64,000 nucleotides of DNA from an uncultured Chloroflexia bacterium (GTDB taxonomy: Bacteria; Chloroflexota; Limnocylindria; Limnocylindrales; CSP1-4): assembly GCA_963713975.1 (NCBI GenBank), contig OY970218.1, positions 672,001 to 736,000 of the forward strand. The letters are read 5' to 3'. Position numbers and translations under genes: made by a program. The notes beneath the pieces were generated by a model. That model was not told the DNA's origin, ran no database searches, and saw only the letters and a program-made list of their open reading frames with translations. Position 1 is the stretch's first letter. Each line of letters starts with the position of its first letter. This document shows positions 10,541 through 27,861 of the stretch, piece by piece.

Positions 10541-10573
10541 CGGCCGTGCGTCCTGGCGCCAGCTCATCGCCAC

Positions 10574-10600
10574 GGGCCGGAGTTCCCATCGACGGATGGG
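10574..10600 (+). promoter_or_regulatory. Island motif copy 1 (CCCATC-GACG-GATGGG palindrome) overlapping a DosR-box-like GGGCCGGAGTTCCC
   Basis: Palindrome 10585-10600 upstream of the kinase; core CGACGGATGGG recurs at 13458, 14559 and 20717. Confidence 0.55.
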
Positions 10601-10693
10601 CCACACGGCCCTGACGCGATATCTATATCGTTCGGCACATTCGAGCCATGCACCACGAGGCGTCCCACCTGTTGAATACGGCTGCGTGATCCC

Positions 10694-12508
10694 ATGAGCG
10701 AGCCCCGCGGCCTGCGCGATCTCAACCGCCTCAAGTGGGTGACGATCGTGCTGCCCATCGTCTTCGTCTGGGGCTTCGAGCTCGTCCGCTTCTTCGTGCT
10801 CGACCGGCAGTTCACGTCGGACGAGTCCCACGTCGCCGCCGCGCTCGTGCTCGGTGCGGCCATCGTCTTCTTCGCGATGCTCGTCTCGGTCTACCTGGAC
10901 CGCGCCCAGCGACATCTCGTATCCCAGAACAGGGACCTCACGGCGACCCATGCCGTCAGCTCCGCGGTCCGCGGGGGCCTCGCGCTGGATGACCTCCTGG
11001 AGCAGTCCCTGGAACAGGTGATCACGCAGACCGGCGCCCTCGCAGGGATTGTCACGGTCGCGGCCACGGACGGCCAGCCGATCGTCCACCGCAGGCCGGC
11101 GATGCCCGCGCCGGGCCTCTCGTGGCTCAGCCCGGTCCTCGATGAGGCACCGGATCCGGTCGTGCAGGCGCCGCGCTACTCGCGCCGGACCGGGATCGAC
11201 ACCGGCATCCTCGACCTGCCACTGGTCCGCGGCAGCCGGAGGATCGGCCACCTTCGACTGGTCTTCCACCCGCCCGTCGAGCCCGACATCTCGGACGCCG
11301 CCCTGGCCGACATCGCGGGCGAGATCGCCGGCGCCGCGCAGTTGGGCGTGACGGTCGCAGACCTCCACCGGCGAGAGCAGGAGCGCGAGGCGCTGTACGC
11401 CGTCGCCCTCCAGCTGACCGGGCGCACGGACCTGCCCGACGTGCTCGACTCGATCACGCAGCACGCCCGAGACCTGCTGGGAGCCGAGCGGGCCGTCGCG
11501 TGCCTGAGCGACCGTCGCGACGCAGCCGCCTCGAGGCCGGGCGCGATGCGGGAGCGCCTGGCCATGGCCGACGACGGCAGCGTGTGCCTGGTGGCCCACG
11601 AGAACGCGGGCGCCAACCATCCGCACAACCCCCTGTGCCCGCTGATCAACCTCGTGCCGGATTCGGCCTGGGCCGCCCGCCCCATGCGCGGGCCGGACGG
11701 GATCCTGGGCGAGCTGTGCGTCGTGCGTGCCGGTCGCCCGTTCACGCCAGCCGAGAGAACCCTGCTGGGAGCCCTCGCCGACATGGCGACGATTGCCGTC
11801 CGCCAGGCCCGACTTCACGAGGCCGAGGAGCAGTGGACAATTCACGCCGAGCGCGATCGGATCGCTCGCGAGCTCCATGACAGCCTGGCGCAGGTGCTGG
11901 GTGTCATCCACCTCCAGCTCCGGTCCCTGGAGGCGCGGGCCAAGGACGAGGCCAGCCTGGGCATCGCGGACGAGCTGTCCGCCCTGGCCGAGACGGCCGA
12001 CGAGGCTTACAGCGACGTCCGCGAGGCGATTCTGGGCCTGCGCGAGACCGTCCGCGAGGACGACGGCCTCGAAGGGTCGCTGCGGGAATACCTGCGCAAG
12101 TACAGCCGCCAGACCGGGATCGCAGCCGGCCTGACCTGCAACGGCGACACGCGGCGGGCGCTGAGCCCGCGCTCTGAGGTGCAGCTGCTGCGTGTCGTCC
12201 AGGAGGCCCTGACCAACACCCGCAAGCATGCCGGCGCGGGCCGGGTCGCCGTGACGATCGACTGCCGCGGGCCCGGGGTCACGCTCACGATCGAGGACGA
12301 TGGCGTAGGCTTCGATCCTTCGATCGTCGCCGGCTCCATGGAGGGAGGCTTTGGCCTTGCCTCGATGCGCGAACGCGTGGAGGCGATCGGCGGCAGCCTC
12401 GACGTGCAGACTGCCGCGAACCAGGGAACGACGATCATCGTCCGACTCGCCGTTGAGGACACCGTTGGGACACCTTCCGCCGAAGCTCCGGGTGCTGCTC
12501 GTCGATGA
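10694..12508 (+). CDS. GAF-domain sensor histidine kinase (HisKA_3, NarX/DosS-like)
   Basis: 2 TM; ERDRIARELHDSLAQ; QEALTNTRKHA; EDDGVGF; GFGLASMRER. Confidence 0.93.
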   Translation: MSEPRGLRDLNRLKWVTIVLPIVFVWGFELVRFFVLDRQFTSDESHVAAALVLGAAIVFFAMLVSVYLDRAQRHLVSQNRDLTATHAVSSAVRGGLALDDLLEQSLEQVITQTGALAGIVTVAATDGQPIVHRRPAMPAPGLSWLSPVLDEAPDPVVQAPRYSRRTGIDTGILDLPLVRGSRRIGHLRLVFHPPVEPDISDAALADIAGEIAGAAQLGVTVADLHRREQEREALYAVALQLTGRTDLPDVLDSITQHARDLLGAERAVACLSDRRDAAASRPGAMRERLAMADDGSVCLVAHENAGANHPHNPLCPLINLVPDSAWAARPMRGPDGILGELCVVRAGRPFTPAERTLLGALADMATIAVRQARLHEAEEQWTIHAERDRIARELHDSLAQVLGVIHLQLRSLEARAKDEASLGIADELSALAETADEAYSDVREAILGLRETVREDDGLEGSLREYLRKYSRQTGIAAGLTCNGDTRRALSPRSEVQLLRVVQEALTNTRKHAGAGRVAVTIDCRGPGVTLTIEDDGVGFDPSIVAGSMEGGFGLASMRERVEAIGGSLDVQTAANQGTTIIVRLAVEDTVGTPSAEAPGAARR

Positions 12509-26114: not shown

Positions 26115-26121
26115 GGGATCG

Positions 26122-27828
26122 ATGAGCGACCTCGAGGACACCCGCACCGGGCCGGCCGACAGGCCGGCGGTGGAGGCTGGGTCGGAGGTCGCGGCGGACG
26201 AGGTCGCAGAGAGCGTCGCAGGGACGGCAGAGGCCGTGGCGGACGAGGAGCCTCCGGCCCCACGCCACCGCCATCCGTTCTACCTGCGTGGCCGCCACAT
26301 CCGCCTGCCGCGCTCGCGCACCGGGGTGCTCGCGCTGATCCTGGTGCTCGTGGCTGGCGGCAGCGTGGCGGCCTTCACGGGCGTGTCGATGATCACGTGG
26401 ACGGAGACCGCCGACTTCTGCGGCCGGTGTCACACCATGGCCCCGGAGCTCGAGGCCTACCATGCCGGCTCCCACCGCGACGTCTCCTGCGGCGAGTGCC
26501 ACGTGGAGCCGGGCATCGCGGGCTGGGTCAAGGCCAAGCTGGCCGGGACGCGGCAGCTGGTGGGCGTGGTCACCGGGAACTACCCGACGCCGATCCATCC
26601 CCCTGACCACGCCGAGCTCCCGAAGGCCGCCGACACCTGCCAGAAATGCCACTCGCTCAACGACCGGTCGTTCGCGGCCGTGCGCACCCAGCAGCAGTTC
26701 GCGGAGGACGAGGCCAATACGCGGGAGGCGGTCGGCCTCATGATCCGGCCGGGAGGCGGCGACCCCTTCGCCGTGGACCGGAGCGTGCACTGGCACGTCC
26801 TCTCTGACTTCGACTACCTCTCGCCGGACACGAACTCGGCGGTCATCGACTACGTGACGGCCACCCGCGAGGACGGCACGGTCGTGGAGTACATCGCCAG
26901 CGACAAGATCACGATCTCCGACAACGTCCAGCCGGACATCGACGCGATCAAGGCCACGGAGCGGGACGTCAAGCTCACCTGCTACGACTGCCACAACCGC
27001 GTGGGCCACGACATCGCCAACCCGCGGACGCAACTGGACTACAACCTGTCCACCGGCGTCATCGATCCCTCGCTGCCGTACATCAAGCGCGAGGGCATGC
27101 GGATCCTCTGGGACAGCTTCCCGGACGAGGCCGCCGCGGACGCCGCCGCGGACGAGCTGGATGGCTTCTACAAGCTCAACTTCCCCGAGGTGCATGCGAC
27201 GAAGGGCGCCCAGATCGCCGGCGCGATCGACGAGATCAAGCTGCTCTACCGCCACTCGGCCACGCCCGAGATGAACGTGACGGCGGGGACCTATCCCAAC
27301 CATATCGGGCACCTGGATTCGCCGGGCTGCTTCCGCTGCCACGACGGCGGTCACTACAAGGTCGAGGATGGCGTTGCCACGACGGAGGTCATCCCGTCCA
27401 CCTGCAACACCTGCCACACGTTCCCGCAGATCGGACCGGCGGTCGCCACCGTGCCGCTGGGCGAGCCGCCGAGCACGCACACGAATGACTCGCTGTGGGT
27501 GTTCAACCACAAGGACGTCGCCACGAGCCGGGATCCCGGCGAGCAGTCCTGCGGCGAGTGCCACGCACGCGACTACTGCGTGAACTGCCACGCCACGGGC
27601 GCAGTGAACGTGGAGCACGATGCGATGGCGACGAACCATGCACAGGTCGTTCGCGATGCGGGCATCCAGTCCTGCGCGTACTGCCACCAGCCGGTGTCCT
27701 GCGCCCGGTGCCATGCCGAACCCGTCCTCCCCGTGACCACGCCCAACTCCCACGGGACGGCCACCGAGGGGTATACGGTCCCGGGCCGGTCTCTGGGCCT
27801 TTCCTGGCCCCTGTCGCCGGGCGGCTGA
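26122..27828 (+). CDS. Membrane-anchored decaheme cytochrome c with NapC/NirT-type N-terminus (putative quinol dehydrogenase)
   Basis: TM then TETADFCGRCHTM...SH..VSCGECH...KAKLAG; ten CxxCH motifs. Confidence 0.88.
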   Translation: MSDLEDTRTGPADRPAVEAGSEVAADEVAESVAGTAEAVADEEPPAPRHRHPFYLRGRHIRLPRSRTGVLALILVLVAGGSVAAFTGVSMITWTETADFCGRCHTMAPELEAYHAGSHRDVSCGECHVEPGIAGWVKAKLAGTRQLVGVVTGNYPTPIHPPDHAELPKAADTCQKCHSLNDRSFAAVRTQQQFAEDEANTREAVGLMIRPGGGDPFAVDRSVHWHVLSDFDYLSPDTNSAVIDYVTATREDGTVVEYIASDKITISDNVQPDIDAIKATERDVKLTCYDCHNRVGHDIANPRTQLDYNLSTGVIDPSLPYIKREGMRILWDSFPDEAAADAAADELDGFYKLNFPEVHATKGAQIAGAIDEIKLLYRHSATPEMNVTAGTYPNHIGHLDSPGCFRCHDGGHYKVEDGVATTEVIPSTCNTCHTFPQIGPAVATVPLGEPPSTHTNDSLWVFNHKDVATSRDPGEQSCGECHARDYCVNCHATGAVNVEHDAMATNHAQVVRDAGIQSCAYCHQPVSCARCHAEPVLPVTTPNSHGTATEGYTVPGRSLGLSWPLSPGG

Positions 27829-27861
27829 GCCGCTCCACCCCGGGCGGCTGAGCCGCTCCAC
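27817..27861. repeat. 23-bp tandem duplication of a hairpin unit (CCGGGCGGCTGAGCCGCTCCAC) between convergent genes
   Basis: Two copies at 27817 and 27840, each containing GCGGC-TGA-GCCGC. Confidence 0.7.

Follow-up and report, generated by a model that had tools for sequence, protein, structure and literature searches.

How could a bacterium without an outer membrane pass electrons between its quinone pool and the outside of the cell, and which parts would it need to do so? This question is raised by a run of 14 consecutive genes, all on the plus strand, at positions 10694-27828 of a 64,000-nucleotide stretch of DNA from an uncultured Chloroflexia bacterium (assembly GCA_963713975.1, contig OY970218.1, forward-strand positions 672,001-736,000; hereafter the window, to which coordinates refer unless stated otherwise). 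The genes encode three multiheme c-type cytochromes together with a cytochrome maturation set, a two-component system, and several putative accessory proteins. An earlier note, made from the DNA letters alone, had read them as a self-contained island for extracellular electron transfer. We propose, with moderate confidence, that the cluster encodes an electron conduit through a monoderm envelope, connecting the menaquinone pool and the cell exterior. Because the host is an aerobe that encodes a heme-copper oxidase and a bc-type complex, we leave the direction of electron flow out of this proposal.

Cytochromes, maturation genes, and host of the cluster

Open reading frame (ORF) calls and domain searches bear out the 14 co-oriented genes and the inventory that the earlier note had assigned to them (Table 1). 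Its count of 24 heme motifs stands as a total, although only 23 are CXXCH and one is CX3CH; six are in the hexaheme, seven plus the CX3CH in the "octaheme," and 10 in the decaheme.

The hexaheme belongs to a large family, as evidenced by 1204 proteins that match at E <=1e-3 among 8000 candidates scored, and by 981 representatives of 50%-identity clusters that match it at E <=1e-3, with 230 of these at E <=1e-30. Like OmcS-type cytochromes, it is secreted, ~400 amino acids long, and equipped with six CXXCH motifs. Alignment A1, of 43 family members with identities as low as 36%, shows the six motifs and six other histidines as invariant or nearly so and the mature N terminus, DGGPH, as nearly invariant. 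The window protein has exactly 12 histidines, six within the motifs and six outside them. By count only, the 12 conserved histidines would be enough for bis-histidine ligation of all six hemes; because this leaves none to spare, it argues for an electron-transfer rather than a catalytic protein. A histidine at the position of OmcS His16, within the heme 1 motif CxxCHxxH, is also nearly invariant, and the profile alignment places this motif colinear with CEGCHTMH of OmcS; the same motif occurs in nonfilament cytochromes with paired CXXCH units, such as MtrA. We take His16 of OmcS to be the position tied to the intersubunit His-heme bond.

Structural comparison points in the same direction. An AlphaFold2 model of the hexaheme was built from A1, with a predicted local distance difference test (pLDDT) score of 70.4 (46-52 for the other four models) and a predicted template modeling score (pTM) of 0.75. 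When it was compared by VIA-align with 48,161 PDB chains, only two reached Z >=2: OmcS (6ef8_A; Z 7.7, root mean square deviation 4.3 Å, 201 aligned residues, 26% identity, model residues 47-388 against chain residues 8-407) and, second, MtrA (6r2q_A; Z 5.3). None of 234 Foldseek-ranked chains reached Z 2 against the same model, which places the OmcS match well above the model's background. The A1 profile aligns with OmcS at E 4.9e-4, hemes 3 and 4 being in register; it also matches MtrA (E 1.7e-5), through repeated paired-CXXCH units, OmcE 7tfs_A weakly (E 0.033), and NrfA 1qdb_A only at E 1.3. A single-sequence phmmer search of the hexaheme against the PDB returned no cytochrome match, and the ESM Atlas returned same-family clusters only, which come from several phyla, are named cytochrome c3 or doubled CXXCH, and serve as leads. 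On the strength of the Z score and the profile match, the likening of this protein to OmcS in the earlier note is supported, and we read the hexaheme as a probable distant member of the OmcS superfamily without calling it an OmcS ortholog.

The adjacent cytochrome is an octaheme only if the CX3CH is counted as a heme site, and that site is invariant in an alignment of 39 such sequences (A2). Comparison of A1 with A2 by hhalign (probability 99%, E 8.9e-18, 290 columns) indicates that the octaheme is a larger paralog of the hexaheme with two extra heme sites, and the A2 profile matches OmcE 7tfs_A at E 0.0065. The proline- and threonine-rich (PT-rich) stretch of ~100 residues corresponds to PF04886. 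The beta-sandwich, modeled at a pLDDT of ~90, resembles generic immunoglobulin (Ig)-like, MG, pilin, or S-layer domains. A signal peptide, a PT linker, and an Ig-like domain together make an architecture typical of surface display. Because the heme domain is poorly modeled, the VIA search of the octaheme model covers only the N-terminal Ig-like sandwich and the heme fold lacks independent structural confirmation; a phmmer search of the octaheme against the PDB gave PT-repeat noise only.

The decaheme provides a candidate link to the membrane. It has one transmembrane (TM) helix, an N-terminal NrfH-like tetraheme module, and six further hemes. The N terminus matches PF03264 (Cytochrom_NNT, NapC/NirT) at 41.5 bits against a cutoff of 24.1, the NCBIfam NrfH model at E 1.9e-13, and PDB NrfH chain 2j7a_C in a phmmer search at E 7.3e-7, with the heme 1 motif CXXCHXM aligned. 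Since the NCBIfam score (50.7) falls below the equivalog cutoff (134.2), we assign the protein to the NapC/NirT/NrfH/CymA superfamily and not to NrfH orthologs, in keeping with its earlier description as NrfH/CymA-like. Such a combination is the usual signature of a quinol-oxidizing or quinone-reducing membrane cytochrome with an outward heme chain, and the window protein probably is one.

The cluster also has its own maturation system, as had been claimed. The ccdA-resB-resC-resA set is complete, in that ResB, CcsA/ResC, CcdA, and a CxxC thioredoxin, the parts that together define System II, are all present. Since paralogs of resB (31% identical), resC (48% identical), ccdA, and resA are scattered elsewhere in the genome, the cluster's set is a second, dedicated one.

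What kind of cell envelope would these proteins occupy? Close homologs carry the source names "Candidatus Limnocylindrales," Chloroflexota, or Chloroflexi, which places the window's lineage in Chloroflexota by sequence similarity. The host genome is a single contig of 3.62 Mb with an estimated completeness of 92%. A search of this entire genome for one outer-membrane marker, Omp85/BamA (PF01103), gave no match, while 7 of 14 control genomes were positive, and no porin or beta-barrel domain was found among the 14 cluster products. These results agree with the earlier suggestions that the cluster has no porin and that the host is probably a monoderm without an outer membrane.

The host genome encodes one heme-copper oxidase subunit I and one cytochrome b with a Rieske gene nearby, so the organism should be able to respire oxygen. 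Cupredoxin paralogs that are 50-57% identical to the C-terminal domain of the cluster's TPR-cupredoxin adjoin both the cytochrome b/Rieske genes and the COX1 gene (G000:C1:1777964-1780974 and 1822990-1827433), with 57% identity for the one beside the bc genes. In this organism, the connection from the bc complex to the oxidase seems to be made by blue-copper carriers. A ResA paralog is also near the host oxidase genes.

Conservation indicates that these genes belong together. The hexaheme has a match in 18 of the 24 other genomes of the GTDB genus and in none of 16 genomes of a small-genome sister family. All 12 genus loci that were fetched have the same gene order, which confirms the predicted synteny in relatives; ccdA was detected in 10 of the 12 and the Rieske gene in 11. 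A scan for the family's conserved peptides yielded 77 distinct public loci, one genome per species, in which genes were detected by tblastn with the window proteins; many loci are cut by contig ends, and the counts in Table 1 are therefore lower bounds. Actinomycetota names are attached to 13 of the 77 (Solirubrobacterales, Intrasporangiaceae, Ornithinibacter, and Actinomycetales), including the cultured Intrasporangium sp. DVR (L095). Their shared order is TPR-NHL-hexa-octa-TPR-ccdA-resB-resC-resA-deca, and the kinase and regulator genes lie next to it. The NarL-type regulator is the cluster's most conserved gene, with 86-94% identity within the genus and 55-60% in the Actinomycetota loci. 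An arrangement shared by all 12 genus loci and most of the 77 public loci is far beyond chance, and the cassette has probably been selected as a unit. The region is one regulated, widely conserved operon cluster.

Not all parts are equally widespread. The Rieske gene was detected in at least 40 of the 77 loci and the pseudo-receiver in at least 51, and neither occurs in any of the 13 Actinomycetota loci; the cupredoxin fusion was detected in 2 of the 77, plus one locus of the genus set (L017). The earlier note had rightly listed the Rieske protein and cupredoxin as extra parts, but they are lineage add-ons and not core components. From this distribution, the Rieske protein, pseudo-receiver, and cupredoxin are apparently later additions in the window's lineage, and the conserved core comprises 12 genes.

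How the cassette came to occur in two phyla was addressed with a FastTree phylogeny of 42 decahemes (31 from Chloroflexota, 10 from Actinomycetota, and the window's), from which loci with a decaheme match of <380 residues were dropped. The two phyla are divided by a single branch whose support is only 68, and three Chloroflexota-labeled rows are placed near Actinomycetota rows. This sequence tree does not decide between ancient inheritance and transfer.

A proposed electron route and its alternatives

How might the parts work together? In the conduit that we propose, the decaheme would exchange electrons with quinol via its NrfH/CymA-like tetraheme module, and its six extra hemes would lead outward. 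The secreted hexaheme, with all of its hemes presumably bis-His ligated, might relay electrons across the cell-wall zone, either polymerized or docked on anchored partners. Its octaheme paralog could then form the distal contact at the surface, where the redox partners might include Fe(III)/Mn(IV) minerals, humics, and other cells. Topology signals are extracytoplasmic for the NHL, TPR, TPR-cupredoxin, Rieske, and ResA proteins, and the anchored NHL propeller and the two TPR proteins may serve the cytochromes as extracytoplasmic assembly, chaperone, or scaffold factors. Loading of the 24 hemes would fall to the ccdA-resB-resC-resA set, a second and dedicated System II, and the GAF kinase/NarL pair may switch the operon on in response to a signal that is probably related to redox state or oxygen. 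The analysis shows the genes present, their topology signals, homologies, and conservation, and the monoderm marker; we infer the order of electron flow, the partners, the propeller and TPR roles, the sensed signal, and the direction of flow (outward reduction or inward uptake).

Several observations weigh against this conduit. The similarity of the hexaheme to OmcS is distant, and the profile match (E 4.9e-4) rests on one stretch; the Z score of 7.7 is below 8 and within the tool's caution range for common arrangements; and Foldseek, run with the hexaheme model on the PDB, returned nothing at E <=0.001 and ranked unrelated beta-rich proteins at the top. The hexaheme model itself is of middling quality (pLDDT 70.4, with 46-52 for the four others), and the heme domain of the octaheme is poorly predicted, with long stretches at a pLDDT of <50. 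The cassette is also patchily spread, with matches in 14 of 401 evenly sampled Chloroflexota genomes (E <=1e-20) and in 7 of 23 genomes of its own family. Moreover, the host is aerobic, to judge from its heme-copper oxidase and bc-type complex, and its known relatives are soil aerobes and not classical metal reducers. NrfH-type modules normally feed catalytic reductases, and a Rieske protein and cupredoxin of high-potential type are at least as compatible with electron uptake as with export. The osc companions of Geobacter OmcS are said to include a peptidylprolyl isomerase (PPIase) chaperone, OscH, the channel-like OscEFG, and the beta-propeller-like OscD; domain searches of the 14 products found no PPIase, ATP-binding cassette (ABC), or channel domain like those reported for OscH and OscEFG.

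Finally, the host genome has four further multiheme ORFs outside the window, with 27, 5, 6, and 7 CXXCH motifs, and thus the pathway may not be self-contained. These ORFs could share the cluster's electron route. Together with the lack of a PdcA-like soluble carrier gene in the cluster, they make the earlier description of a complete, self-contained wire an overstatement.

The hexaheme is a cytochrome with a cleavable signal peptide and with no anchor, lipobox, or sorting motif seen in its sequence. Because it is unanchored and the host probably lacks an outer membrane, it would have to polymerize or bind an anchored partner. A stronger form of our proposal follows the first of these options and is, in our judgment, tentative and on balance doubtful: the hexaheme would polymerize into an OmcS-type filament that crosses or exceeds the wall of aerobic high-GC monoderms, namely, Limnocylindria-type Chloroflexota and Actinomycetota such as Intrasporangium and Solirubrobacterales, using minimal machinery (NHL, TPR, and System II, with no OscEFGH) under the control of a redox-responsive kinase. 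A two-copy complex prediction for the mature hexaheme, run without hemes, scored 0.35, with the mark at 0.42 and controls at 0.00, and speaks neither for nor against polymerization.

The conduit as first stated says nothing about direction, and a rival account runs the same hardware inward. Extracellular donors, such as a partner cell, reduced humics, Fe(II), or Mn(II), would deliver electrons to the surface cytochromes, from which they would pass through the Rieske protein and cupredoxin into the aerobic chain, with the NrfH-like decaheme returning some of them to the quinone pool. Rieske proteins and cupredoxins are normally high-potential carriers, and the cluster has one of each, the Rieske lipoprotein being of the b6f/bc1 type. 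The host's single heme-copper oxidase and its bc-type complex, the location of the cupredoxin paralogs beside the genes for both, and the labeling of cassette carriers as soil and freshwater aerobe lineages are all consistent with uptake. However, the Rieske gene is found in 0 of 13 Actinomycetota loci and the cupredoxin fusion in 2 of 77 loci, so neither is in the conserved core, and it is for this reason that we rank inward flow below the conduit. The core itself, with its NrfH-like decaheme and OmcS-like cytochromes, matches systems described for outward transfer, and Pfam/NCBIfam searches found no match to a Cyc2/MtoA-type oxidase family. We therefore consider dedicated uptake unlikely.

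Less probable still, and to us rather improbable, is that the cluster encodes a respiratory enzyme for a soluble or oxyanion substrate. Here, one heme of the octaheme would be catalytic, and the protein would act as a terminal reductase or oxidase that receives quinol electrons through the decaheme and hexaheme much as NrfH feeds NrfA; no long-range or extracellular transfer would take place. NrfH/NapC modules classically serve catalytic partners, and the decaheme matches NrfH; the eighth heme site of the octaheme is the unusual, invariant CX3CH; and its heme domain is modeled too poorly for a catalytic pocket to be excluded. There is also a precedent in Thermincola, whose surface cytochrome OcwA is, in the available portion of its description, placed nearer to enzymes of the nitrogen and sulfur cycles than to cytochromes of extracellular electron transfer (PMC7911101). 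Set against this, the heme domain of the octaheme is paralogous to the OmcS-like hexaheme and has 12 invariant nonmotif histidines for eight hemes in A2, neither secreted cytochrome has a CXXCK motif, and the PT linker and Ig-like domain are typical of surface display. Neither secreted cytochrome matches NrfA, HAO/ONR, OTR, or MccA at E <=0.01 in Pfam/NCBIfam searches, and none of these appears in the PDB profile search with the octaheme family, which favors the earlier view that the cytochromes are not catalytic enzymes. NrfA/HAO/OTR-type chains are likewise absent from both VIA-wide lists, of which the octaheme list covers the Ig-like part only; this absence does not exclude them.

A housekeeping locus for c-type cytochrome biogenesis, with the multiheme proteins as ordinary bc-to-oxidase carriers, would suit an aerobe and a cluster with a full System II set and a thiol-redox pair, but it is very improbable, given that second copies of resB, resC, ccdA, and resA elsewhere make the cluster set an extra, dedicated one, that 16 of 23 own-family and 387 of 401 phylum genomes sampled have no match, and that 24 hemes in three large proteins far exceed the need of a bc-to-oxidase shuttle. 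The envelope conduit between the menaquinone pool and the cell exterior is thus the account that we retain.

Gene layout, flanks, and variant loci

The features on which this account is built are collected in Table 1.

Table 1. Genes of the cluster and multiheme ORFs elsewhere in the host genome, with the minimum number of public loci (of 77) in which each cluster gene was detected
Feature	Position	Strand	Evidence and remarks	Loci (at least)
Membrane sensor histidine kinase	10694..12508	+	2 N-terminal TM helices; Pfam GAF, HisKA_3, HATPase_c; PDB matches to DesK, VraS, and DosT ATPase domain	59
NarL/LuxR-type response regulator	12465..13160	+	Pfam Response_reg and GerE; likely TTG start at 12465, overlapping the end of the kinase gene	60
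Small receiver-like protein (pseudo-receiver)	13540..13929	+	ORF opens at 13450, likely start at 13540; orthologs align from residue ~31	51
Tat-exported Rieske [2Fe-2S] lipoprotein	13940..14461	+	PF00355, 34.7 bits; PetC-like, E 1.9e-11; RRR...LAGC Tat-lipobox leader; b6f/bc1-type CxH...CxCH boxes	40
Single-pass membrane protein with extracytoplasmic TPR	14520..15632	+	TPR families; TM helix 65-83	69
Single-pass membrane protein with extracytoplasmic NHL beta-propeller	15632..16714	+	NHL, 89 bits; TM helix 45-63	72
Secreted OmcS-like hexaheme c-type cytochrome	16820..18040	+	406-amino-acid precursor, likely start at 16820, mature N terminus DGGPH; 6 CXXCH	77
Secreted/surface "octaheme" cytochrome, 785 amino acids	18243..20600	+	Signal peptide, ~100-amino-acid PT-rich linker, Ig-like beta-sandwich, heme domain with 7 CXXCH and 1 CX3CH	73
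Bitopic TPR-cupredoxin	20834..22345	+	~195-amino-acid cytoplasmic N terminus, TM helix 201-219, extracytoplasmic TPR, C-terminal Cupredoxin_1	62 (TPR protein, with or without cupredoxin; TPR part, 61)
CcdA/DsbD-type thiol-reductant transporter	22338..23117	+	DsbD_TM (PF02683), 46 bits; 7 hydrophobic segments	55
ResB/CcsB, System II cytochrome c synthase subunit	23114..24604, start approximate	+	PF05140, 245 bits	55
ResC/CcsA, System II heme-handling subunit	24618..25499, start approximate	+	Cytochrom_C_asm (PF01578), 164 bits	54
ResA-like membrane-anchored thioredoxin, WCPDC motif	25527..26114	+	NCBIfam ResA, 93 bits, below the cutoff of 170; TM helix	54
Membrane-anchored decaheme, NapC/NirT/NrfH-like N terminus	26122..27828	+	10 CXXCH; PF03264, 41.5 bits; TM helix 67-85	54
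Multiheme ORFs outside the window	G000:C1:2126027-2128063 (27 CXXCH, 679 amino acids); 1992846-1993583; 1995839-1996942; 2708740-2709765		Each with an N-terminal hydrophobic segment	

The small receiver-like protein has no Pfam match and only weak matches to the NarL, NarP, and MctR receivers (E 1e-3 to 3e-3). In a weak alignment with the neighboring receiver domain, its acidic pair is changed from DD to YS and the phospho-Asp position from D to E.

The GC content of the window is ~70% throughout and that of the cluster, 0.68-0.72, is the same as that of its flanks. No tRNA was found in positions 1-40000 of the window, and the cluster is neither flanked by long repeats nor set off by a break in composition; a mobile-island reading was rejected on these grounds. 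The term "island" used in the earlier note therefore fits in the sense of a compact, conserved operon cluster but not in a compositional or mobile sense. A scan for promoter and terminator consensus sequences, which is uninformative at 70% GC, returned no promoter-like site and 2 terminator-like sites, where 4.1 were expected.

Short repeats and hairpins accompany the cytochrome genes. A tandem direct repeat of 23 nucleotides at 27817-27862, with copies that are 96% identical and a short GC hairpin in each, spans the decaheme stop codon and may be a terminator element or a recent duplication. GC-rich stem-loops lie directly 3' of both secreted cytochrome stops, at ~18053-18088 and at 20629-20670 (20-nucleotide arms, 2-nucleotide loop). 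By stabilizing or attenuating the transcript, these hairpins may increase the dose of the upstream gene, although the 221-nucleotide stretch 3' of the hexaheme gene, with a GC-rich hairpin inside it, folds no better than shuffled sequences (z -0.09). Between 18001 and 24000, the GC skew is more negative (-0.08 to -0.125) and the AT skew swings from +0.14 to -0.125 over the octaheme, TPR-cupredoxin, and ccdA/resB genes, which probably results from Pro/Thr/Ala-rich coding and not from a replication feature.

The flanks are unrelated to the cluster. Upstream are NuoE/F-like and NuoG/formate dehydrogenase (Fdh)-like iron-sulfur genes and an EEP-family gene, the last of which was detected in at least 6 of the 77 loci. 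The first two, at 6452-9432, encode a fused NuoE/NuoF-like flavoprotein and a NuoG/formate-dehydrogenase-like iron-sulfur protein; together they resemble the diaphorase portion of a soluble dehydrogenase linked to NAD and are not kept beside the cassette in other loci. Downstream, on the opposite strand, are genes for a pyridoxal phosphate-dependent decarboxylase and a major facilitator superfamily transporter.

Individual loci depart from the common arrangement. In one locus of the same genus (L015; G018:C7:636000-655900), the decaheme, resC, ccdA, NHL, TPR, and a second hexaheme copy match in two to three pieces in different frames, with a TGA inside one match; this fragmentation reflects either cassette decay or assembly indel errors. 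A metagenome-assembled genome (MAG) labeled Solirubrobacterales (L085) has three tandem hexaheme paralogs at 10001-13121 of its locus and no octaheme-type gene, and in several Chloroflexota loci (L016, L017, L058, and L063) the NHL and hexaheme genes are separated by an additional hexaheme-like gene of greater length. Loci thus differ in how many OmcS-like genes they carry. Also, a contig labeled Candidatus Deferrimicrobiaceae (L086) carries the kinase, NarL, TPR, and NHL genes and the start of a hexaheme gene (51% identity) at the contig end. The phylum of Deferrimicrobiaceae is expected to be diderm, and this half-cassette is possibly the product of transfer or of a binning error.

Significance and comparison with known systems

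Soil and freshwater commonly harbor Limnocylindria-type Chloroflexota, Solirubrobacterales, and Intrasporangiaceae, which are usually treated as plain aerobic heterotrophs. If our proposal is true, carriers of the cassette could exchange electrons with minerals, humics, or neighboring cells under fluctuating oxygen, and the assignment of iron, manganese, and carbon turnover to taxa in oxic-anoxic soils would change. The cassette resembles a stripped-down OmcS system, one whose operon lacks OscEFGH-type genes and whose host probably has no outer membrane, and it could show which parts are needed for maturation, export, and perhaps polymerization. Were the filament version true, Terrabacteria other than Firmicutes would have their first cytochrome-nanowire system, and in a cultured, testable host. 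Since the cultured Intrasporangium isolate (L095) has the same gene order, the question can be tested at the bench.

The comparisons below draw on the available portions of the papers cited. The earlier note knew of no described equivalent, and that claim does not survive: the clusters of Thermincola, Dethiobacter, a Solirubrobacterales MAG, and the Geobacter osc genes are, as far as those portions go, of the same kind. By analogy, then, equivalents are already described in Firmicutes and Geobacter, and the close functional analogs in Firmicutes limit what we can claim as novel. What appears to be new is the combination: a fixed 12-gene cassette, its occurrence in Limnocylindria-type Chloroflexota and several orders of Actinomycetota, a built-in System II, no PPIase or channel companions, and the Rieske and cupredoxin additions. 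We found no description of the cassette in Limnocylindria, Ellin6529, Edaphomicrobia, or Actinomycetota lineages in a literature search that did not cover the primary osc paper and supplementary tables. The available text on the Solirubrobacterales MAG mentions in passing four cell-wall multiheme genes in one cluster (PMC6344600), an OmcS homolog is reported in a Coriobacteriales genome (PMC7399161), and one survey, by the text at hand, counts only cytochromes with >=20 hemes (10.1101/2021.08.23.457424).

Unlike the porin-cytochrome conduits, such as MtrCAB, the window cluster has no beta-barrel gene, and its similarity to MtrA is limited to paired-CXXCH repeats. For the OmcE clusters of Desulfuromonadia, the accessible description combines a small multiheme filament subunit with beta-propeller lipoproteins, further multihemes, and a beta-barrel, with resB/ccsB nearby (PMC13712944). 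The window shares with them a multiheme subunit with a propeller, other multihemes, and ResB, and the profile matches to OmcE are weak (E 0.033 for the hexaheme family, 0.0065 for the octaheme family); however, OmcE is described as a tetraheme.

OmcS of Geobacter sulfurreducens is encoded in the osc (omcS companion) operon, in which the paralogs omcS, omcT, and oscC are adjacent and whose products are proposed, in the part of the paper available, to function in folding, secretion, and morphology (PMC13194489). As in that system, the window has a secreted hexaheme of ~400 amino acids with all hemes probably bis-His ligated (here from the histidine count), OmcS-like paralogs side by side, and beta-propeller and TPR proteins in the cluster. 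In contrast, the window hexaheme is only ~26% identical over the 201 residues that align structurally, the host is probably without an outer membrane, no PPIase or channel-like domain is found in the 14 genes, and the cluster adds System II genes, an NrfH-type decaheme, and a two-component system. The comparison with the Osc proteins was by gene descriptions and not by sequences.

Gram-positive bacteria offer further parallels. Clusters of Dethiobacter alkaliphilus are described as combining CymA-like and other multiheme cytochromes with NHL and TPR proteins, and the cytochromes are overexpressed on ferrihydrite or thiosulfate (PMC10376724). The window resembles these clusters and those of Carboxydothermus ferrireducens in its CymA/NrfH-like putative quinol oxidase, secreted multihemes, NHL and TPR proteins, and flanking regulators (PMC10376724). 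Their clusters differ in carrying MtrA/MtoA/SmhB-like cytochromes, flavoproteins, and ABC components, and the available text mentions no dedicated ccs genes there; the comparison was by description and not by protein homology.

The monoderm pathway of Thermincola potens/ferriacetica, as given in the available portion of its description, is proposed to consist of the membrane decaheme ImdcA, the soluble PdcA, the hexaheme CwcA, and the surface cytochrome OcwA, in which CwcA is 18% identical to OmcS, insoluble, and modeled as a wall-spanning polymer (PMC7911101). The window likewise pairs a membrane-anchored decaheme, a putative quinol oxidase, with an OmcS-like hexaheme in a probable monoderm, a likeness to ImdcA and CwcA that is drawn by description, with no sequences compared, and is an analogy only. 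The window cluster has neither a PdcA-like soluble decaheme nor any further cytochrome gene. Its distal cytochrome is an apparent OmcS-like paralog with a PT linker and an Ig-like domain, whereas that of Thermincola is described as an NrfA-like nonaheme. Thermincola is a thermophilic, anaerobic member of the Firmicutes, whereas the cassette is carried by high-GC, aerobic soil Chloroflexota and Actinomycetota, and in the window all of the parts are found in one operon with their regulator and maturation set.

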